Of a stretch of 64,000 bases of DNA, positions 118 to 10,551 are shown in pieces. Origin of the DNA: an uncultured Oscillospiraceae bacterium (lineage in GTDB: Bacteria; Bacillota; Clostridia; Oscillospirales; Oscillospiraceae); NCBI GenBank assembly GCA_910579965.1, contig CAJTWF010000003.1:308-64307 (forward strand), given 5' to 3'. A program made the translations under genes and the position numbers. The notes beneath the pieces are model-generated. The model ran no database searches. It was not told the origin of the DNA and saw nothing but the letters and a program-made list of their open reading frames with translations. Each line of letters opens with the position of its first letter. The first letter of the stretch is position 1.

Positions 118-762
118 TCAATGGGTGGTGCCCATGGCCTCTCCAATATCCCGCTGGTTGGTTACGACGGCCTCAATGGCATACTCCAGCGCTTTCGAAA
201 TGGTCTCCAGGGAGGCGCTGGCCATGGTGACGGCCTTGTCTACCACCTGTCCCGTGGCAAAGGGAACATGGATGAAGCCCGCCCGGATATGGGGATACTT
301 GGTAGCGGCCATGTGCAGCACGTTGTACATCACGCAGTTGCACACGTAGGTGCCTGCGGTATAGGAGATGTGACAGGGCAGGCCGTGGTCCCGCACGTTC
401 TTCACCATGGCCTTGATGGGGAGCGTGGTAAAATAGGCGCTGGGTCCATCCGGCTGGAGGGGTTCGTCTATGGGCTGCTCTCCGGCGTTGTCGGGGATCC
501 TGGCCTCCGCCAGATTAATGCCCACCCGCTCAATGGTCACGCAGGCGCGGCCTCCAGCCTGACCGACGTTAATCACCACGTCCGGGTTGTGGGCCTGGAT
601 ACCGGCCTCCACCGCAGGTCCGCTCTTGGAGAACACCGTAGGGATCTCCAGCTTGATGATCTCCGCTCCGGCAATGGTGTCTGGCAGGAGCTTCACCGCC
701 TCGTAGGCGGGGTTCACGGTCTCGCCGCCAAAGGGGTCAAAACCTGTTACCAAAATTTTCAT
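118..762 (-). CDS. pcp: pyroglutamyl-peptidase I (pyrrolidone-carboxylate peptidase, peptidase C15)
   Basis: 214-aa ORF with N-terminus MKILVTGFDPFGG. Motifs GQAGG and GTYVCN, and the overall length, are typical of Pcp. ATGA overlap with the upstream gene. Confidence 0.93.
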   Translation of the reverse strand: MKILVTGFDPFGGETVNPAYEAVKLLPDTIAGAEIIKLEIPTVFSKSGPAVEAGIQAHNPDVVINVGQAGGRACVTIERVGINLAEARIPDNAGEQPIDEPLQPDGPSAYFTTLPIKAMVKNVRDHGLPCHISYTAGTYVCNCVMYNVLHMAATKYPHIRAGFIHVPFATGQVVDKAVTMASASLETISKALEYAIEAVVTNQRDIGEAMGTTH

Positions 763-1280
763 TTCGCGTCGTCCTTTCGTTTTTGTAGTGGAAAAATCAG
801 CTCGATTGATGGAAGGCGGATATTGCTGCGGCAGTCATAGAGTTCCATGGACTCCACGTTGTCCTTCAGCTCATATCCAGACGTGGGGAGCCAGGTCTCC
901 ATAAAATAACACTTTGCCCTGGCCACAGACAGGGTGAGGTCGTTAGGAACCTTGAACTTGATGTGAATCTCCGCGTATTCCCCCGGCTCCAGCTCAAGTA
1001 CAGTGAACTCCTCTCCCTGCCCGGGGCTGTCCACCAGGTCCCCCACAAAGTAGGAAAACCGCCCCTGCTGATCCGGATTATGGAAGATCACCATGGTGCC
1101 GCTTGGGTTGGAGCGGTTCTCCAGCTTGTCCCGCAGGCCGTAGAACCGCTTTTGCAGCTTCTGGACATCTGCTTTGTAGGTCTTTTTTTCCGTTACCATC
1201 TGAACGCCAGCCACAAAGCGGCTCTCCTCATAGGAGGCGGTATCCACGGTGATCCGCTTTTTTTGAAAGAGAGAAAACAT
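759..1280 (-). CDS. GyrI-like / AraC-effector-binding-type small-molecule-binding domain protein
   Basis: 173-aa ORF with coding-like composition. Pattern typical of GyrI-like domains, including the C-terminal ETWLPTSGYEL. No DNA-binding domain present. Confidence 0.65.
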   Translation of the reverse strand: MFSLFQKKRITVDTASYEESRFVAGVQMVTEKKTYKADVQKLQKRFYGLRDKLENRSNPSGTMVIFHNPDQQGRFSYFVGDLVDSPGQGEEFTVLELEPGEYAEIHIKFKVPNDLTLSVARAKCYFMETWLPTSGYELKDNVESMELYDCRSNIRLPSIELIFPLQKRKDDAK

Positions 1281-1380
1281 AGGGCCCCTCCTTATTTTAC
1301 AACCTGGAGCCGCCGCCGAAGGATATCGGATGGACCGCCCCTTTGGCTTGCGGGCACTGTCCCCCTCCCCGCGTCAAGCC

Positions 1381-2349
1381 TCATACGACCGGGAATCCAT
1401 CCTTCATAATCAGAATATCGTCGGCGTAGATCGTAGGGAACTGGAATACCAGGTCAAAGTGGCCCGCCGCGTCGTGAACGCCGCCCAGCGCCAGATTCCG
1501 GCCCATGCCGATGTGGAAGGTGGTGAAGGTCGACTCGTCCTCTATATAGCAGTTCCCCTTGCAGCGTGAGATCTTGTTGAGACCGATGCCCAGCTCCCCG
1601 GCCACGTAGATCCCCCGGTCTCCGAAGGAGTTCATGTAGCGCCGGAGTCCCTCGCCGGCCTCCCCGCCGATCTCCACCAGCCTGCCCTGACGGAAGGTGA
1701 GCTGGATGGGGGTCTCAGGGCGGCCCAGATAGCCCAGGGAGCCGTCCACCACAGCCCGGCCGGTGGTCACCGTCTCCTCTATTCCGATATAGATCTCGAA
1801 GCTGGAGGAGCCGGCCTTTCCGGGCTGATCGGCCAGGCCGTTAAACAGACCGGGGGTCCGCCCCCGCTTTCCGAAGTGGAGATCCGTCCCCAGGGCCGTG
1901 GTCACGCGGACGCTCTCCGCCTGCCGCAGGGCCTCCAGCATTCCCCGTCCCGTCCGCTCCGCTTCCGCCGGGTCCATGGCCATGAAGTCCAGCGTCAGCG
2001 CCGGCGGCCCCTTTCCGTTGGAAAGAGGGAGAGAGAGAAACCGGCCGCCCCGGGACAGGACCTGCTTAACGATCCGGTTCGTCAAAATGGAAAAATTGGT
2101 TGCGCCAACGACAAGATCGTGGTGCAGAACAAAATCCGCCATGGAGTGGAGTACCTTGCCGGGGTGGGAGCGATGCTCCTGAATGGTCACCAGGGTGACC
2201 TCCGTGCCGCGCTGGTCCGCCGCGGTCCACATGGCCATGCTCTCCTCCACATGACGTTCATCAGAGAGGATCAGAACCTTTTCACCCGGCCGCACCTTGC
2301 ACCAGCGCTCCATGACAATCCCGGCCCCCTCCTCCAATGATAAGCCCAT
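1381..2349 (-). CDS. M29 (AmpS/aminopeptidase T)-superfamily-like protein, function uncertain
   Basis: 322-aa ORF. By eye it resembles the short members of the thermophilic-metalloprotease M29 / NicX-like superfamily (GELGIGLN, FHIGMGRN segments). Recognition is from memory only. Confidence 0.55.
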   Translation of the reverse strand: MGLSLEEGAGIVMERWCKVRPGEKVLILSDERHVEESMAMWTAADQRGTEVTLVTIQEHRSHPGKVLHSMADFVLHHDLVVGATNFSILTNRIVKQVLSRGGRFLSLPLSNGKGPPALTLDFMAMDPAEAERTGRGMLEALRQAESVRVTTALGTDLHFGKRGRTPGLFNGLADQPGKAGSSSFEIYIGIEETVTTGRAVVDGSLGYLGRPETPIQLTFRQGRLVEIGGEAGEGLRRYMNSFGDRGIYVAGELGIGLNKISRCKGNCYIEDESTFTTFHIGMGRNLALGGVHDAAGHFDLVFQFPTIYADDILIMKDGFPVV

Positions 2350-2421
2350 AGGGGGTCACAACCTTTCAGCCAGACAGACAGGGGGCCTGCGGATGCAGCC
2401 CCCTGCCGTCTGCGTTTGGGA

Positions 2422-3378
2422 TCAGAAATTCACAGCAATAAACATATAGGCCAGCTGGAACACCAGCATACAGGCAGAGGGGATGGCCTGCATTTTGATG
2501 ATGGAGTACTTGTCCTTCACCTCCAGGTACACGCCGGGGACGATGTTGAAGTTGGCGGCCATGGGGGTCAGCAGAGTGCCGCAGTAGCCGCAGGTCATGG
2601 CCAGCGTGACCATGTACAGGGGGTTGCCGCCCAGGCTGATGACAAAGGGTACGCCCACGCCCACGGTCATGACCGTGATGGCGGCAAAGGCGTTGCCCAT
2701 GATGATGGTGAAGAGCATCATGCCCAGGGCATAGGCCACAATGCCGATGTACACGTTGCCGGAGGGGATGATCTTGCCGAAGAGCACGGAGAACGCGTCT
2801 CCTACGCCGGCCCGGGTGAACACCGCGCCCAGGCAGGAGAGCAGCAGGGGCATGATGTACACCGCGCTGGTCATATCCAGGAAGCGGCGGCCCTCCTCCA
2901 GGAAGACCATGGGCTTGTTCTCCTTGTTCCAGAGCACCAGGATGATAACGCCGAAGATGGTGGCAAAGAGGGATCCGATCAGGGAGCTCCAGCCGGGCAG
3001 GAAGATGGAGATCAGAATGGTGAACACGCCCGCGCCGAAGGCGGGAATGAAGATCTTCATGCCGATCCTCTTGAAGTTGCGCAGCTGCTCCTCCTTGGGG
3101 GCGGCCTCCAGGTTGCCCCGGCGGACCAGCTTCAGCCCGGCGGGCACGCAGATGATGGCCACAATGATGCCGCTGATGAGCGGAGGCAGCCACTGGCCGA
3201 AGGCCACCACCACGCCCAGCAGGGACCAGAACAGGCCCGTGGGCAGATAGTACTTGTTGTCCTTCTTCATCCAGGCCCGAATGCCGCAGTAGATGCAGAA
3301 CACGCCGGAGAGGATGTACATGATCTGAACCAGCTTGGCGGAGATGGTGACCTCCGCATCCATAAAGTATGCAAACAT
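2422..3378 (-). CDS. DUF979-type polytopic membrane protein (putative permease subunit)
   Basis: 318-aa hydrophobic ORF. RBS AGGAGG 8 nt upstream of the ATG. Lies directly downstream of a DUF969-type gene and in the same operon as pcp. Confidence 0.8.
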   Translation of the reverse strand: MFAYFMDAEVTISAKLVQIMYILSGVFCIYCGIRAWMKKDNKYYLPTGLFWSLLGVVVAFGQWLPPLISGIIVAIICVPAGLKLVRRGNLEAAPKEEQLRNFKRIGMKIFIPAFGAGVFTILISIFLPGWSSLIGSLFATIFGVIILVLWNKENKPMVFLEEGRRFLDMTSAVYIMPLLLSCLGAVFTRAGVGDAFSVLFGKIIPSGNVYIGIVAYALGMMLFTIIMGNAFAAITVMTVGVGVPFVISLGGNPLYMVTLAMTCGYCGTLLTPMAANFNIVPGVYLEVKDKYSIIKMQAIPSACMLVFQLAYMFIAVNF

Positions 3379-3396
3379 TGATACGTCCTCCTTTCC

Positions 3397-4083
3397 TTAC
3401 TTCTGGGTCTTCATGACCGCGCCGTAGCACTTCTTGCTCATGCGGGTATCCACGGCGATGGTGTAGACTGCGGCCATCAGCATGGCAAAGGCGGCCACGG
3501 GGATCTGCACCCGGACGATCTGCATCACGTCCACCTCATAGCCGATGTTGGCCAGGGTGGACTGGATGAGCAGCACCGACGCGTTGGCGGCGAAGCAGCA
3601 CTGGCCGAAGAAGTTGCCCACGTTGTAGTGCATGCCGTAGAGGGCCTTCATGCACTCCTCGTGCTCCTCGGCCACAGCTCTGCCGTTGGACTCCACGATA
3701 CCAACGGTCATGGGCATCAGGATGGGGCGGACATAGGCGGGGACGCTGCCGATGGGGATCTTGAAGATGATAAAGAACTCATGGGCGATGCCCCAGACAG
3801 CCATCAGCATGCCGGTGCTGAGGCCCTGAAGCTTCCGGATCAGCTCCGCGCCGGCCTCCTTCAGACCGTTGCGCTCCAGAGTGCCGGTAAGGATCATCAG
3901 GATAATGGTAATCAGCTGGGTTCGGTTGGCAACAAAGGTCTTTCCCACGGTCTCCAGCAGTTCGCCGGGGGGGATCTGTCCGCACACCGCAGTCACAATG
4001 GTGGACACAAAGATGATTGCGATCGGCTCCAGCTTGAGCGCAAAGCCTATGACCACAACCAGGACGCCAAGTAAGCTTAACAT
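3397..4083 (-). CDS. DUF969-type membrane protein (putative permease subunit)
   Basis: The ORF track starts at TTG 4128, but ATG 4083 has RBS AAGGAG 7 nt upstream and begins directly with a TM helix (MLSLLGVLVVV). Gives a 228-aa membrane protein. Confidence 0.78.
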   Translation of the reverse strand: MLSLLGVLVVVIGFALKLEPIAIIFVSTIVTAVCGQIPPGELLETVGKTFVANRTQLITIILMILTGTLERNGLKEAGAELIRKLQGLSTGMLMAVWGIAHEFFIIFKIPIGSVPAYVRPILMPMTVGIVESNGRAVAEEHEECMKALYGMHYNVGNFFGQCCFAANASVLLIQSTLANIGYEVDVMQIVRVQIPVAAFAMLMAAVYTIAVDTRMSKKCYGAVMKTQK

Positions 4084-4145
4084 AACTCCACTCCTTACAA
4101 AACACAATTTGGGGATCTTTTTGTTCAAAAATAAAGCTGGTCATT

Positions 4146-5240: not shown

Positions 5241-5864
5241 CTATTTCCGGTCCCTCCGGCCCAGCAGGCCGTCGGGAATATCCAGGATATACCGCTCGTA
5301 GGCGTTGATAATGGTGGTCTCCCCCCGCTGGTGGACCCGGGGCAGGTCCGCGCCGTAGCTCATGTGGACGTGTCCGTGGACCATGTACATGGGCTTGTAC
5401 CGATCCAGAAGGGACAGCAGGCACTCGAAGCCCCGGTGGGCGTAGTCCTCCCCGTCGCCGTAGCCCTGGGCCGGGGAGTGGGTGACCACCAGATCCACGC
5501 CCCCGGCCCGCCAGAGCTGGAAGCGGAGCTTCCGGATCCGCCGGGCCATCTGGCGCTCGGTGTACTGGTGGGGGCCGCCGCTGTACTGGATGCTTCCCCC
5601 CAGGCCCAGAATGCGAAGGCCGTTCACCGTCACCAGCTTGTCCTCGATGCAGTCGCACCCCTCGGGGGGGCGCATTTCGTAGGTCCTGTCGTGGTTCCCA
5701 TGGACGTAGAGCACCCGCGCCCGGCCCATGGTCACCAGAAAGGACAGGTAGTTGGCCTTCAGGTCCCCGCAGGAAATAATCAGGTCAATTCCGTCCAGCC
5801 GTCCGGGCTGGTAGTAGTCCCAGTAGTATGGGCTCTCCTTGTCGGAGACCAGAAGGATTTTCAC
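5241..5864 (-). CDS. cytoplasmic metallophosphoesterase (calcineurin-like)
   Basis: GTG start 5864 (VKILLVSDKE) overlapping the upstream stop as GTGA. Motifs D-x-E, GDL, GNHD, GH-x-H (HGHVH). Confidence 0.8.
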   Translation of the reverse strand: MKILLVSDKESPYYWDYYQPGRLDGIDLIISCGDLKANYLSFLVTMGRARVLYVHGNHDRTYEMRPPEGCDCIEDKLVTVNGLRILGLGGSIQYSGGPHQYTERQMARRIRKLRFQLWRAGGVDLVVTHSPAQGYGDGEDYAHRGFECLLSLLDRYKPMYMVHGHVHMSYGADLPRVHQRGETTIINAYERYILDIPDGLLGRRDRK

Positions 5865-7834
5865 AGCAGCGGCCCCTCCTTCTCCGGCTGGATCTGATCC
5901 CGGTACACCCCTTGCAGGCGCACCAGGGCCCTGGACATGGGCAGCAGCTCCTCGTAGGCGGGGATGGCCCCGTCCACGCCCTCGCACAGCCAGTCCATGC
6001 GCATGATCTCCTGGGGGGAGAACCACTTCTCCCCGTCGCTGCGCACCGTCCCGTCCTGGGACCGGATGGGCTGCTGGAAGGGCAGAATACTCTCCTCCGC
6101 CACCCCCTTGCGGAGGATGTTCACCAGCTGCACCACCCCGGAGGGCAGATCCGGACTGAGCAGCACGTCGATGGCCCGGCTGCTCATGCCCCACCAGTAG
6201 TTCACCGCCCGGTCATCGTCCCGGGAGCTGATGGCGTCCCAGCTGCCGCTGAAGATGCTGCGCACGATCTTGACATAGAAGTTGCCCCAGTGCCAGTAGG
6301 GGGAGGCCAGGGGGGCCATGGTCCCGTCGGCCCGGAGCTGGCAGAGGCCCCAGGGCTCCTGGACCCGGTCCGGCGTGGGGATGTCCCGGTTGGAGATCAG
6401 ATCCACCCCCTCCCGGACCAGCGCGCCCATGGGGTCCTCCTCCACGCAGGACCAGCACAGCCGGACCCGGGCCCTGGGATTGGTGAGCCGGGCCCCCAGG
6501 GTGAAGGCGTTGATGCTGGCGGGCACGCCGAAGATGGGGTTGGAGGCCACGTAGCCGATCTGCCCGTCCCGGCTCATGGCCCCGGCGATGGCCCCGGTGA
6601 TGAACTTGCCCTCGTAGATGCGGCTGTAGTAGGTGCGCACGCTGGCGTAGGGCATGGAGGCGGAGCAGTTGAGCACCCGGACATTGGGATACTTGGCGGC
6701 GATCTTCCGGCAGGCGTCGATGAGAGGGGGCGTGGTGGCGAAGATGACCTGGGCCCCCTCCCCGATGACCTCCTCCATGGCCTCCACCGCCGCCTCGGGC
6801 TGGACGCAGCTGCGGACCTGGGCGGTGACCTTATCCCCCATCACCGCCTCCATATACTGCCGGCCCAGATCGTGGGCCCGGACCCAGTCGCTCTCCTCGG
6901 GGCTGTGCTCGTTGATGAAGGCCACGTTGAGCCGGTCCGGGAACACGGCCTTCACCAGCCGGCCCCAGAGGCCCTGGGCGGGCTCCTCCTCCCCCTTCTG
7001 CTCCTGGGTCTCCGTGCTCACGGAGATGGGCTCGGTCTGGGAGAGGACCTTCACGTCCGCCCACACGGCGTTCAGGGTCTTCACCAGCTCCGCGGCCGGG
7101 GTGGTCTTGAGCTGCTCGAAGGGATACACCCGCAGCCACACCAGCAGCGCGTCCGCCGCCGTCACGGGCAGGCTCTCTCCCCCCAGCTTCTTAAATGCCT
7201 CGGTGAAGAAAGTGAAGCCGGAGATGAACCTCAGCCGCTCGTCCTCGGTCCACACGTGGTCCGGCTCATAGCCCAGGGCGGCCTGGAGCTTGGCAAAGCT
7301 GCCCACCCGGCTGAAGTAGACCCGGTAGAGCTTTGTCATCTGATAGGAGCGCATGAAGTCGTAGTAGGCCTGGACCGCCGGATCGTCGGACCAGCTGGGG
7401 ATGACCCGGATGACGTAACCCGGGATGGTGGGGGCGTGGTAGCTCTTCAGGACGCTGGCCCGCTTGTTGCCCTCCTGGACGTAGAACCGGCCCAGGTACT
7501 CATAGCAGCGGATGGGGTCCCGGATGCCCTCGTCCCCCAGATGGGCCGCGCACAGCTCCTTCCACTTGAAGGCGAACTCCGAGTCCGGCTCCAGCAGGGG
7601 CATGAAGTTGGCGGCAAAGGCGCTGCGCCGTCCGGCGGTCTTGGTGCCGGTGACCTGCTCGGTGGGGATCTCAATGACCCCCATGTCCACCCGGCCGGCC
7701 ACCATGGCGTCGTCCAGGATCTCGTCGAGCACCTGGGGATAGGGGTAGCGCCCGTGGAGAACGCAGTCCTTATAGTTCTTCTGGCCCAGTCTGAGGGCTC
7801 TGCTGTACTGTTCCGCCGCTTCCTGTCTGTTCAC
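5861..7834 (-). CDS. fusion protein: N-terminal ParB/sulfiredoxin-like domain plus C-terminal BMP (PnrA/Med)-family binding domain; no signal peptide
   Basis: 657-aa ORF with GTG start 9 nt after AGGAGG. C-terminal half has a BMP-family pattern (FATTPPLIDACRKIAAKYPNVRVLNCSA; GKFITGAIAGAMSRDGQIGYVASNPIFGVPASINAF). N-terminus has IEIPTEQV ... DPIRCYEYLGRFYVQEGNKRASVLK. Confidence 0.8.
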   Translation of the reverse strand: MNRQEAAEQYSRALRLGQKNYKDCVLHGRYPYPQVLDEILDDAMVAGRVDMGVIEIPTEQVTGTKTAGRRSAFAANFMPLLEPDSEFAFKWKELCAAHLGDEGIRDPIRCYEYLGRFYVQEGNKRASVLKSYHAPTIPGYVIRVIPSWSDDPAVQAYYDFMRSYQMTKLYRVYFSRVGSFAKLQAALGYEPDHVWTEDERLRFISGFTFFTEAFKKLGGESLPVTAADALLVWLRVYPFEQLKTTPAAELVKTLNAVWADVKVLSQTEPISVSTETQEQKGEEEPAQGLWGRLVKAVFPDRLNVAFINEHSPEESDWVRAHDLGRQYMEAVMGDKVTAQVRSCVQPEAAVEAMEEVIGEGAQVIFATTPPLIDACRKIAAKYPNVRVLNCSASMPYASVRTYYSRIYEGKFITGAIAGAMSRDGQIGYVASNPIFGVPASINAFTLGARLTNPRARVRLCWSCVEEDPMGALVREGVDLISNRDIPTPDRVQEPWGLCQLRADGTMAPLASPYWHWGNFYVKIVRSIFSGSWDAISSRDDDRAVNYWWGMSSRAIDVLLSPDLPSGVVQLVNILRKGVAEESILPFQQPIRSQDGTVRSDGEKWFSPQEIMRMDWLCEGVDGAIPAYEELLPMSRALVRLQGVYRDQIQPEKEGPLL

Positions 7835-7910
7835 TCCAGATATCCTCCTTTGCTCCGCCGGCCTCCGGCGGGTCCCAATGGCTTCTGACTGTCTTCACGA
7901 AATCAGGGTC

Positions 7911-7940
7911 ATTATAAAGCAAAGAGGGGCCGGGATGCAA
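7911..7940 (-). promoter_or_regulatory. candidate promoter of the ParB-like/BMP operon
   Basis: Minus strand: TTGCAT, 18 nt, TATAAT. The roughly 75-nt leader contains the hairpin CCGCCGG-AGG-CCGGCGG just before the RBS. Confidence 0.45.
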
Positions 7941-8072
7941 TCCCCAGAGGGCCGGGGAAACGGAGATTTTTCCCGGGAAAAGGCGGTCAGAACTGTCACA
8001 TCTGATAAAAACCGGGCCAGGGGCGCGCCGCTCTCCGGGCGCAGTATTCCCAGAATTTGTTGCAAATACCCC

Positions 8073-8106
8073 TTGACGGGGCGGAAATCCTAGGATAGGA
8101 TAGGGA
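8073..8106 (+). promoter_or_regulatory. candidate promoter plus ATAGGGA half-sites upstream of the Rrf2 gene
   Basis: TTGACG, 17 nt, TAGGAT. Overlapped by ATCCTAGGAT and by tandem ATAGGA/ATAGGGA (8095-8106). The same heptamer recurs before nifS. Confidence 0.35.
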
Positions 8107-8130
8107 TTAACGAGGGAGGGAGGGGTCCAT

Positions 8131-8589
8131 TTGAAGATATCTGCCAAGAGCCGCTACGCCCTGCACCTGATGCTAGCCCTGGCCATGCAGGAGGAGGGCG
8201 TGAACCTGTCGGTGAAGTCGGTGGCCGAGCAGCAGGGCATCAGCGAGAAGTACCTGGAGCAGATCATCCCCGTGCTGGTGCGCAGCGGTCTGGTGCGCAG
8301 CGTCCGGGGGGCCCGCGGGGGCTACCACCTGGTCAAGAGCCCGGAGGACTACACCGTGGGCCTGATCCTGCGGACCGTGGAGGGCAGCATCGCCCCTGTC
8401 TCCTGCCTGGACGACGCGGTCAACCAGTGCGCCCGGTGCAAGGAGTGCGCCACCCTGGCTCTGTGGGAGCAGGTGGACCAGGCCATCAGCAATGTGGTGG
8501 ACCACGTGACCCTGGCCGATCTGGTGGACAAGCAGCGGCGCATCGACGCCCGGTGCACCGCCGGCCGGGGGCAGCGGGGGAACTGTTGA
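8131..8589 (+). CDS. Rrf2-family transcriptional regulator (IscR/CymR-like, with Cys cluster)
   Basis: TTG start. MKISAKSRYALHLMLALA... winged-HTH typical of Rrf2. C-terminal Cys motif (VSCLDDAVNQCARCKEC) suggests an Fe-S ligand set. Confidence 0.9.
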   Translation: MKISAKSRYALHLMLALAMQEEGVNLSVKSVAEQQGISEKYLEQIIPVLVRSGLVRSVRGARGGYHLVKSPEDYTVGLILRTVEGSIAPVSCLDDAVNQCARCKECATLALWEQVDQAISNVVDHVTLADLVDKQRRIDARCTAGRGQRGNC

Positions 8590-8754
8590 GCCCCCCTATT
8601 TCCGCGCACAGGAGAGGCGTTCATCCGGGCCGCTGACAGGGAAATCCATTTTTCGAAGGACGCTGTCTCCTGTAAGCCCGCCCCTACAGGACCCCCGCAC
8701 ACCTCCAGCTTGCCGCAGGAAAATCTGATATCCCTGGGCTGCTGAAAAAAGAAC

Positions 8755-8817
8755 TTGACTTTTCTCCCTCCCCGCCGTATGATAGGGATAACAGTAACTC
8801 CTATTTCCATATAGGGA
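8755..8817 (+). promoter_or_regulatory. candidate nifS promoter with three ATAGGGA/TCCTAT half-sites
   Basis: TTGACT, 17 nt, TATGAT (8755-8783). Followed by ATAGGGA (8782-8788), CTCCTAT (8798-8804) and ATAGGGA (8811-8817). Confidence 0.4.
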
Positions 8818-8870
8818 TTTAGGAGAAGATACCGGGGACGCGCCCCGAAGGAAGAAAGAAGGAACCGCCC

Positions 8871-10058
8871 ATGTTTGTTTACGCTGACAACGCGGCCACC
8901 ACCGCCATGAGCAAGGCCGCCATTGACGCCATGACCCCCGCCATGCACCAGCTCTACGGCAACCCCAGCAGCCTCCACCAGAAGGGCCGGGAGGCCAACT
9001 ACGCGCTGATGGACGCCCGGGAGACCGTGGCCCGGTGCCTCAACGCCCAGCCCAGGGAGATCTACTTCACCGGCTGCGGCACGGAGTCGGACAACTGGGC
9101 CATCACCGAGGGGGCCCGCCTGGGGGCGGAGCAGGGCAAGAGGCACATCATCTCTGACCCCATCGAGCACCACGCCGTGCTCCACACCCTGGCCAAGCTG
9201 GAGAAGCAGGGCTTTGAGGTCACCTACCTGCCGGTCCACGAGGACGGCGTGGTGCGCCTGGAGGATCTGGCCGCCGCCATCCGCCCGGACACCTGCCTGG
9301 TGACCATCATGTTCTCCAACAACGAGATCGGCACTGTCCAGCCCATCCGGGAGATCGGGGCCCTGTGCCGGGAGCGGGGAGTCCTCTTCCACACCGACGC
9401 GGTCCAGGCGGTGGGCCACCTGCCCATAGACGTGGCGGCGGACAACATCGACATGCTCTCCCTCTCCGGCCACAAGTTCCACGCCCCCAAGGGCGTCGGC
9501 GCGCTGTACTGCAAGAAGAGCGTGCCCATCAGGAACTTCATCGAGGGCGGCGCCCAGGAGCGGGGCCGCCGGGGCGGCACCGAGGCCATCCCGGCCATTC
9601 TGGCCATGGCGGCGGCCATGAAGGACAGCTGCGAGCACATGGAGGAGAACATGGCCCGCGTCTCCGCCATGCGGGATAAGCTCATCGACGGGCTGAGCAA
9701 AATCCCCCGCTCCCGCTGCAACGGCAGTCCGGACCACCGGGCCCCGGGCCTCGTCAGCTTCTGCTTTGAGGGCATCGAGGGGGAGAGCCTGCTGCTGCGG
9801 CTGGATCTGGCCGGCATCTGCGCCAGCTCCGGCAGCGCCTGCACCAGCGGCTCCCTGGACCCCAGCCACGTACTGCTGGCCCTGGGTATGCCCCACGAGA
9901 TCGCCCACGGCTCCCTGCGGCTGAGCCTGTCCGAGTACAATACCATGGAAGAGGTGGACTACATTCTCCAGCAGGTGCCGGAGGTGGTGCGCACCCTGCG
10001 GCAGATGAGCCCCGTGTGGTCCCGCATGCTGGAGACCATGGAGGACCCCTACCAATAA
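8871..10058 (+). CDS. nifS: cysteine desulfurase NifS/IscS type
   Basis: 395-aa ORF. PLP-Lys motif SLSGHKFHAPKG, active-site loop SSGSACTSG, and family-typical N-terminus YADNAATT. Confidence 0.95.
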   Translation: MFVYADNAATTAMSKAAIDAMTPAMHQLYGNPSSLHQKGREANYALMDARETVARCLNAQPREIYFTGCGTESDNWAITEGARLGAEQGKRHIISDPIEHHAVLHTLAKLEKQGFEVTYLPVHEDGVVRLEDLAAAIRPDTCLVTIMFSNNEIGTVQPIREIGALCRERGVLFHTDAVQAVGHLPIDVAADNIDMLSLSGHKFHAPKGVGALYCKKSVPIRNFIEGGAQERGRRGGTEAIPAILAMAAAMKDSCEHMEENMARVSAMRDKLIDGLSKIPRSRCNGSPDHRAPGLVSFCFEGIEGESLLLRLDLAGICASSGSACTSGSLDPSHVLLALGMPHEIAHGSLRLSLSEYNTMEEVDYILQQVPEVVRTLRQMSPVWSRMLETMEDPYQ

Positions 10059-10098
10059 ACAGGATTTTCATCCGGATCAGAAAGGACGAATAGAAGCT

Positions 10099-10551
10099 AT
10101 GGCAATGGAATACAGCGAAAAGGTGATGGAGCATTTCGCCCATCCCCACAACGTGGGCACACTGGAGGACGCCAACGGCGTAGGCGAGGTGGGCAACGCC
10201 AAGTGCGGCGACATTATGCGCATGTACCTGAAGATCAGCGACGACGAGGTCATTGAGGACGTGAAGTTCCAGACCTTCGGCTGCGCCTCCGCAATCGCCA
10301 CCAGCTCCATCGCAACGGACATGATTAAGGGCCGGCCCCTCAAGGACGCCCTCACCCTGACCAACAAGGCGGTGGTGGTGGCTCTGGACGGCCTGCCGGC
10401 GGTGAAGATTCACTGCTCGGTCCTTGCGGAGCAGGCGGTGAAGGCCGCCGTGGCGGACTACTACAAGCGCAAGGGCATCCCCTTCGAGTCCCCCTGTGAC
10501 CAGTGCGGCGGCGAGGGCTGCTGCGGCCATGACCACGGCTGCGAGGAATAA
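10099..10551 (+). CDS. nifU: Fe-S cluster assembly scaffold NifU/IscU
   Basis: 150-aa ORF. YSEKVMEHFAHPHNVG, GNAKCGD, FGCASAIA and HCS motifs of U-type scaffolds, plus a Cys-rich C-terminal tail. Confidence 0.93.
   Translation: MAMEYSEKVMEHFAHPHNVGTLEDANGVGEVGNAKCGDIMRMYLKISDDEVIEDVKFQTFGCASAIATSSIATDMIKGRPLKDALTLTNKAVVVALDGLPAVKIHCSVLAEQAVKAAVADYYKRKGIPFESPCDQCGGEGCCGHDHGCEE

Follow-up and report, generated by a model that had tools for sequence, protein, structure and literature searches.

We analysed a 64,000-nucleotide stretch of DNA (hereafter the window) from an uncultured Oscillospiraceae bacterium (assembly GCA_910579965.1, contig CAJTWF010000003.1), concentrating on a gene for a 657-amino-acid (aa) fusion protein that joins a module of the ParB/sulfiredoxin (Srx) type to a C-terminal BMP domain, and on the metallophosphoesterase gene that overlaps its end (Table 1). 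The fusion had been pointed out in an earlier note made from the DNA letters alone, which gave its coordinates exactly but left the strand (minus) unstated. To that description our analysis adds a coupled phosphoesterase, a DUF4032-like helical domain and evidence that the evolutionarily constant part of the protein is the ParB-like module and not the BMP domain.

Table 1 Features of the fusion gene, its product and the adjoining genes. Residue numbers refer to the fusion protein.
Feature	Position in window	Strand	Evidence or remark
Ribosome-binding site AAGGAGGA	7843..7850	minus	Read from sequence; 8 nt 5' of GTG start
657-aa open reading frame: ParB/Srx-like module, helical domain, linker and BMP domain	5861..7834	minus	
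N-terminal helix, residues 1-27, Y10 invariant	7754..7834	minus	AlphaFold2 secondary structure and conservation
Predicted ParB/Srx-fold core, residues 28-147	7394..7753	minus	Foldseek and hhalign
Box I-like EIPTEQVTGTKTAGRRSA, residues 55-72	7619..7672	minus	Aligned with ParB IPLxxIxxxxxQPRKxF
Box II-like GIRDPIRCYEYLGRFYVQEGNKRASV, residues 103-128	7451..7528	minus	Aligned with ParB GVIQPL..YQIIAGERRWRA
All-helical folded domain, residues 148-268	7031..7393	minus	AlphaFold2 pLDDT 95
Disordered, acidic, poorly conserved linker, residues 269-298	6941..7030	minus	pLDDT 74 falling to 44; variable columns
BMP / type I periplasmic-binding-protein domain, residues 299-640	5915..6940	minus	Pfam, phmmer, pocket comparison
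Metallophosphoesterase, 207 aa	5241..5864	minus	Pfam Metallophos and Metallophos_2; GTG start overlaps fusion stop (GTGA)
DUF4430 protein, N-terminal membrane anchor	5226-4807	minus	Directly 3' of phosphoesterase gene
170-aa multi-pass membrane protein, no Pfam match	4817-4305	minus	Overlaps DUF4430 gene

The fusion gene starts with GTG at 7834 and stops with TGA at 5863-5861. This start is supported by the homologues, which align from residue 1 and in which Y10 is invariant, and no in-frame ATG, GTG or TTG lies between it and the preceding stop codon, so no upstream start could add a signal peptide, as the earlier note had argued. The protein is soluble and cytoplasmic: sequence inspection and a hydropathy scan revealed no signal peptide or lipobox, again in agreement with the note, and no hydrophobic N-terminus or membrane segment (maximum Kyte-Doolittle 19-residue mean, 1.15 for the whole protein and 0.86 within residues 1-60). 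Its isoelectric point (pI) is 5.3, and that of the N-terminal module 5.7. Full-length homologues are abundant in Oscillospiraceae (63-100% identity, all about 650-660 aa) and, where named, are labelled 'BMP family ABC transporter substrate-binding protein'. For the fusion protein, the label of a substrate-binding protein of an ATP-binding cassette (ABC) transporter is almost certainly wrong.

Contigs from mouse-gut metatranscriptomes cover the fusion gene and bridge its junction with the phosphoesterase gene. These are assembled contigs, so the evidence of transcription is weak. A weak sigma-70-like promoter (TTGCAT, 18-nt spacer, TATAAT) lies on the minus strand at 7911-7940, about 75 nt 5' of the start; the RNA contigs reach past it, to about 8021-8024, and their depth dips in the intergenic region at 7975-8125, between the fusion gene and the divergent Rrf2-side genes. 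No riboswitch or leader was found 5' of the fusion gene in the window or at nine related loci. A ZMP/ZTP riboswitch in a Faecousia locus (L056, 5141-5222, minus), about 1.8 kb upstream, faces away from the fusion gene; it is assigned to a divergent gene and probably has nothing to do with the fusion.

HMMER searches of Pfam, NCBIfam, PADLOC and PHROGs returned nothing for residues 1-298, and the Pfam ParB_N model (PF02195; gathering threshold, 26.3 bits) did not match the fusion protein even at E values up to 5, with shorter ParB-like relatives reaching only 0.006-0.016. The AlphaFold2 model of the N-terminal module, built from a 66-sequence alignment, had a predicted local distance difference test score (pLDDT) of 93.2 and a predicted template modelling score of 0.85, and every significant Foldseek match to it in the PDB had a ParB/Srx fold (Noc, ParB, KorB, PadC, sulfiredoxin, SbnI and the SerK-like 1vk1). 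Noc was matched at E 3e-5 and sulfiredoxin with a template modelling (TM) score of 0.56-0.62 and a root mean square deviation (rmsd) of 3-4 Å, and SbnI gave the best local superposition (rmsd, 2.7-3.0 Å). Against BFVD, the top match was itself a member of this fusion family and the named remainder were of ParB/Srx type. Profile-profile alignment with 32 canonical ParB/Noc proteins of the same order (hhalign) gave a probability of 81.6% and E 1e-5. The ParB/Srx-like domain that the earlier note had read from motifs is thus borne out by the predicted structure, which makes residues about 28-147 a true, divergent member of this fold. One BFVD entry (A0A8S5LUW4, Podoviridae sp. ctC2p8) is a 491-aa fragment of the fusion family (44% identity; TM, 0.86) that sits under a gut virome contig; it either comes from bacterial DNA contaminating the virome or is a copy carried by a phage.

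In the profile-profile alignment, IPTEQVTGTKTAGRRSAF falls on ParB Box I, with R69 on the arginine of the QPR motif, and GIRDPI..YEYLGRFYVQEGNKRAS falls on Box II. The same alignment sets G122-N-K-R125 of the EGNKR sequence against G-E-R-R, the position of the GxxR P-motif, where the earlier note had placed it; the protein does contain the peptides quoted there (GVIEIPTEQV and DPIRCYEYLGRFYVQEGNKRASVLK) as well as the acidic patch ETQEQKGEEEPAQ. G63, R69, G122 and R125 are invariant across all architectures of the wider family described below and N123 is nearly so, while an alignment of the module alone adds Y118 and P146 to these four as invariant positions. Acidic residues E86, E112 and E121 are conserved as well, and a conserved 13-residue insertion (NFMPLLxxxTEF) follows the Box I-like motif. 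The catalytic glutamate of GERR is replaced by Asn123, and Box III (ENLQR) is absent, the aligned region being unconserved. In sulfiredoxin, the catalytic cysteine sits in an FGGCHR motif; this cysteine too is absent, its equivalent by our reading of the motif alignment being Asn123 of EGNKR.

The protein therefore shares with ParB, Noc, KorB and PadC the predicted fold, the Box I arginine and the GxxR P-motif, but, unlike the canonical ParB clamp, it lacks Box III, the helix-turn-helix domain and a ParA partner and has an asparagine for the GERR glutamate. It also shares a (D/E)GxxR-type motif with sulfiredoxin, SerK and SbnI, non-DNA, nucleotide-using ParB-fold proteins that provide the best local superpositions, but the best profile match to Srx reached only E 0.16, and the helical domain is unlike that of SbnI. 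The P-motif was defined in a survey of the ParB fold in which mutating the GxxR arginine abolished binding of nucleoside triphosphate (NTP) in 11 tested proteins (PMC12704722). That survey was based on PF02195 and does not mention a Bmp fusion; the present protein is invisible to it because it lies below ParB_N detection. Among the systems it describes, archaeal ParB-CBS fusions likewise combine an NTP-binding ParB fold with a small-molecule sensor domain (Kaljevic et al. 2025, PMC12704722).

Between this core and the BMP domain, the earlier note had proposed a linker of about 130 aa. Only residues 269-298 are a disordered acidic stretch; residues 148-268 form a folded helical domain. Folded alone, the helical domain had no fold match in the PDB (best E, 2.2), including to helix-turn-helix or ParB DNA-binding domains, and this result together with an hhalign probability of 0.1% against ParB led us to reject it as a ParB DNA-binding domain. 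The Pfam model PF13224 (DUF4032) has no direct match to the fusion protein or anywhere in the source genome, and we found no paper on DUF4032 in a literature search. It does match, above cut-off, the helical region of 330-360-aa proteins from another family of the phylum, and the DUF4032-matching region of these shorter relatives is homologous to our helical domain by hhalign (probability, 97.7%; E 2e-12; residues 25-274). By these alignments the helical domain appears related to DUF4032.

The C-terminal BMP domain, also claimed in the earlier note, was readily confirmed (Pfam Bmp PF02608, 64.2 bits against a cut-off of 24.1, E 1.3e-17), so that of the two profile matches the note had proposed to look for, Bmp was found and ParB was not. 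A phmmer search of the PDB aligned residues 299-625 end to end with 3s99, a BMP lipoprotein of Brucella, and with the atrazine/purine binder AtzT (6pi5) at E 3e-35; a family profile gave 1e-62 to 1e-63. Proteins that bind nucleosides, such as TmpC/PnrA, matched far more weakly (8e-5), which places the BMP domain in the purine-base-binding clade. We then compared the pocket in 56 fusion proteins and 7 stand-alone BMP relatives of the phylum, using as reference the AtzT contacts Tyr45, Ser97, Glu165, Trp194, Asn218 and Asn220 (PMC6834077). Pocket positions in the fusion protein are W317, T368, K410, G436, E465, N482 and D484, with Tyr45, Ser97 and Asn220 of AtzT corresponding to Trp317, Thr368 and Asp484. 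Across the family, the aromatic lid (Trp in 55/56), Ser/Thr at position 97 and Asp/Glu at position 220 are retained. The Glu165 position, however, is Gly in 46 of the 56 and Glu in none, the stacking Trp194 is found in none, and the Asn218 position is variable. All seven stand-alone relatives keep both Glu165 and Trp194 and carry a lipoprotein signal peptide and lipobox, and AtzT/3s99 likewise differ from the fusion protein in being exported and in lacking the 298-aa module ahead of the BMP domain.

These comparisons show that the purine pocket is systematically remodelled in the fusion family, and because it has been rebuilt, the ligand is probably not a plain purine base. The BMP domain would have been recruited from lipoprotein purine-base binders, with loss of the export signal and alteration of the pocket. 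A few homologues depart from the usual length. Two of the longer ones (P0248, 885 aa; P0221, 820 aa) have long Ala/Glu/Lys-rich tails after the BMP domain, probably coiled-coil, and a third (P0249) has a garbled C-terminus that is probably frameshifted. We rejected the idea that such extensions are a fused phosphoesterase, since two of them compared by BLAST had no similarity to that enzyme and are Ala/Glu/Lys-rich tails. In one family of the order, three fusion variants of 564-588 aa (L122, L128 and L131) show a reduced BMP match, and no phosphoesterase lies within 8 kb of them.

The constant partner of the fusion protein is the metallophosphoesterase, another difference from canonical ParB. 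Its gene adjoins the fusion gene, usually overlapping it, at 86 of 90 related loci, and two of the four exceptions are contigs that break off. Of ten distant members, which have 29-38% identity, six have the phosphoesterase gene next to the fusion gene, three of them on its upstream side and three downstream. No other neighbour is conserved at the related loci, and the conserved neighbourhood has no ABC permease or ATPase genes. The phosphoesterase is more conserved than the fusion protein, with invariant metal ligands (D8, GD34, GNHD59, H129 and GH165xH167): motif I is D-x-E in place of the canonical DxH, while GD, GNH(D/E), H and GHxH are all invariant. The nearest solved structure is MPPED2 (E 8e-6), followed by Dbr1. 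Canonical metal-binding motifs are common to the partner and the class III cyclic-nucleotide phosphodiesterase-like enzymes typified by MPPED2, but motif I is altered and the alignment extends over the C-terminal third only. We regard the enzyme as MPPED2-like and probably a phosphodiesterase for a substrate of nucleotide type. A homologue search returned no informative names. The phosphoesterase does match the PADLOC candidate PDC-S10 (E 9e-18), for which we found no paper giving a function in a literature search; the fusion protein has no PADLOC match.

The phylogenetic survey that the earlier note had called for revealed the fusion family in at least 600 species-level genomes, mostly gut Oscillospirales, with carriers including Oscillibacter, Lawsonibacter, Flavonifractor, Faecousia, Gemmiger, Anaerofilum and Faecalibacterium hattorii. 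The gene is single-copy and occurs in 21 of 24 other genomes of the genus, and a scan of 301 genomes from 153 genera of the order found it in 41 genomes and 24 genera, in every case as an open frame of 470-740 aa. The source genome additionally encodes two canonical ParB/Noc proteins. Searching with the N-terminal module by phmmer yielded 1,050 cluster representatives; among the matches listed, 93 of 150 also had a BMP domain and the remaining 57 had none and look like fragments. Two apparent stand-alone module proteins checked on long contigs came from frameshift-ridden assemblies with a BMP reading frame directly following, and are probably artefacts.

With an alignment of the N-terminal module alone as the query, 26 of 401 genomes of the phylum contained the module, in four architectures: with BMP (641-657 aa), with 4Fe-4S motifs or nothing further (305-361 aa), at about 200 aa, and as the core only (125-169 aa). 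The 330-360-aa proteins that match PF13224 are also matched by our profile of the N-terminal module (E about 1e-16); they carry two 4Fe-4S motifs at the C-terminus and stand beside a phosphoesterase of the same family (E 1e-65 to 1e-69). In the classes of 200-361 aa that have no BMP domain, this phosphoesterase family is adjacent at 16 of 17 loci (E 1e-57 to 1e-75). The short DUF4032 relatives of 305-361 aa thus share with the fusion protein a homologous N-terminal module of about 250 residues and the adjacent phosphoesterase, and differ in having 4Fe-4S motifs or no recognisable domain in place of BMP. Because the phosphoesterase also stands beside relatives without BMP, the unit that is conserved consists of the ParB-like module and the phosphoesterase, with BMP as a putative lineage-specific sensor add-on. 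Loci from other families of the phylum (L142-L146 and L150-L164) encode C-terminal 4Fe-4S ferredoxin-type motifs with the same phosphoesterase immediately upstream, an arrangement that points to a version of the system sensing redox state or Fe-S. Proteins of 125-169 aa (L165-L169) consist of the ParB-like core only, and their flanks of about 1.4 kb hold no phosphoesterase.

Other neighbours in the window do not belong to this unit. One metatranscriptome contig spans 4313-6302, so the genes for the DUF4430 protein and the 170-aa membrane protein are probably co-transcribed with the pair here. We nevertheless rejected both, together with Rrf2/NifS/NifU, as members of the unit, as they are not conserved beside the gene in other genomes. 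The DUF4430 and membrane-protein genes are missing from every other related locus, and their linkage is confined to this lineage; the sole extra locus with window neighbours (Rrf2 and NifS) is 97-100% identical to the window. Genes for a divergent Rrf2-family regulator, a NifS-type cysteine desulfurase and a NifU/IscU scaffold occupy 8131-10551 on the plus strand. On the minus strand, a five-gene cluster (118-4128) encodes a pyroglutamyl peptidase (118-762), a GyrI/Cass2-like effector-binding protein (759-1280), an M29-like aminopeptidase (1381-2349) and multi-pass membrane proteins at 2422-3378 and 3397-4128. The latter two resemble the DUF979/DUF969 pair, which often accompanies pcp.

We propose that the fusion protein works as one unit with the phosphoesterase encoded immediately downstream. 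The BMP domain would sense a purine-related small molecule, and the ParB-like module would bind an NTP and relay the BMP signal to gate or direct the phosphoesterase, through a physical or functional coupling in which control presumably runs towards the enzyme. On this view the two proteins would form a ligand-controlled module for nucleotide hydrolysis or signalling and would have no part in transport, with the C-terminal domain as an exchangeable input that is BMP here and, in other lineages, 4Fe-4S or absent. Three features lead us to read the fusion protein as a ligand-gated, NTP-binding partner of a nucleotide-type phosphodiesterase: the invariant residues for putative NTP binding, the exchange of C-terminal domains of sensor type, and a phosphoesterase that is both dedicated and highly conserved. 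We give this reading slightly less than an even chance. The broader suggestion of the earlier note, an intracellular protein that binds or processes nucleotides or nucleosides and is not a substrate-binding protein, fits the location, the neighbourhood and the remodelled pocket. Its remark that the function is undescribed also stands: our literature search found no paper on the ParB-BMP fusion architecture or what it does.

Several observations weigh against the ligand-gated reading. Among 28 purified ParB-fold proteins, 17 bound no NTP in vitro (PMC12704722). The (E/D)GN(K/H)R form of the motif is nearer to the generic ParB-nuclease/Srx/SerK branch than to the CTPase switches, and the GERR glutamate that CTP hydrolysis requires is the residue replaced by Asn; for both reasons we consider an enzymatic role, as a phosphotransferase, roughly as plausible as that of a switch. 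Several former pocket positions of the BMP domain vary widely within the fusion family, so the domain may not bind one defined ligand. Four of the ten distant members have no phosphoesterase gene within 8 kb, and the RNA contigs, being assembled, could include DNA carry-over.

The main rival is a two-enzyme metabolic pair, possible in our view but well short of an even chance. Here the ParB/Srx module would be a phosphotransferase, likened to the free serine kinases SerK and SbnI or to sulfiredoxin, that phosphorylates a purine-related substrate held by the BMP domain, and the phosphoesterase would perform the next or opposing step in salvage, detoxification or modified-nucleotide turnover. 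SerK provides the precedent of a ParB-annotated protein that is a metabolite kinase (PMC5120207), and both SbnI, the best match locally, and SerK-like 1vk1 are among the structural matches. The (D/E)GxxR-type motif with the conserved E86, E112 and E121, the derivation of the BMP domain from purine binders and a translational coupling that suits consecutive enzymes all point the same way. The exchangeable C-termini (BMP, 4Fe-4S or none), on the other hand, speak against one fixed substrate delivered by BMP, and the pocket positions vary within the family. An asparagine at the position of the Srx catalytic cysteine is a further difficulty, the dissimilarity to the SbnI helical domain leaves only 91 aligned columns, and a kinase paired with a phosphoesterase would run a futile cycle unless one of them were regulated. 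A DNA-binding regulator, in which an NTP-dependent ParB-like clamp takes BMP as its effector sensor in the manner of LacI/PurR, is improbable. BMP and LacI effector domains have the type I binding-protein fold in common, the PDB entry for Med, a protein of the BMP family, describes it as a transcriptional activator of comK, and Foldseek aligns Noc, ParB and KorB over about 230 columns that include their DNA-binding domains. Globally, however, the TM score to ParB/Noc is only about 0.3 (rmsd, 15-19 Å), and the helical domain by itself matches no helix-turn-helix or ParB DNA-binding domain by structure (best E, 2.2) or profile (hhalign against ParB, 0.1%). The acidity of the protein (pI 5.3, module 5.7), the missing Box III and the two canonical ParB/Noc proteins already in the genome also argue against such a regulator.

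Two further explanations fare worse. Involvement in anti-phage defence was considered since proteins of both kinds, ParB-like and phosphoesterase, turn up repeatedly in defence systems. Mobile elements often carry ParB-fold domains (PMC12704722), and the phosphoesterase matches PDC-S10 (E 9e-18). We think a defence role very improbable, given that the fusion protein itself has no PADLOC match, is single-copy and present in 21/24 other genomes of the genus, lies in other lineages amid housekeeping genes such as dapA, dapB and dapF, and has no mobile-element genes nearby. The annotated role, a substrate-binding protein of an ABC importer for a nucleoside or purine, has in its favour the Pfam Bmp match and the names given to homologues in the sources, and is effectively refuted. 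The protein has neither signal peptide nor lipobox nor any possible upstream start that might supply one, begins with a 298-aa module of cytoplasmic type, keeps a conserved neighbourhood free of ABC permease and ATPase genes, and has lost family-wide two key purine-binding residues that its true lipoprotein relatives retain.

The uniform mis-annotation as a substrate-binding protein distorts transport and metabolic reconstructions of these gut organisms. The family illustrates clearly how a periplasmic binding-protein fold can be recruited into the cytoplasm, apparently as a sensor, and adds to the known repurposings of the ParB-CTPase/Srx fold a case that Pfam-based surveys cannot see. Its strict pairing with a phosphoesterase across several architectures leads to a hypothesis, open to direct test, of a new module for nucleotide-linked regulation or metabolism. 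More speculatively, and we regard this as unlikely, the ParB-like/DUF4032 module with its dedicated phosphoesterase could represent a class of non-DNA ParB-fold NTP switches, widespread in Bacillota and undescribed, in which exchangeable C-terminal sensors control hydrolysis of a nucleotide-type signal or metabolite; the sensors may be purine-type BMP domains in Oscillospirales, including Faecalibacterium, and 4Fe-4S elsewhere. If true, this would mean that dominant gut anaerobes possess a new pathway of signalling or metabolic control.

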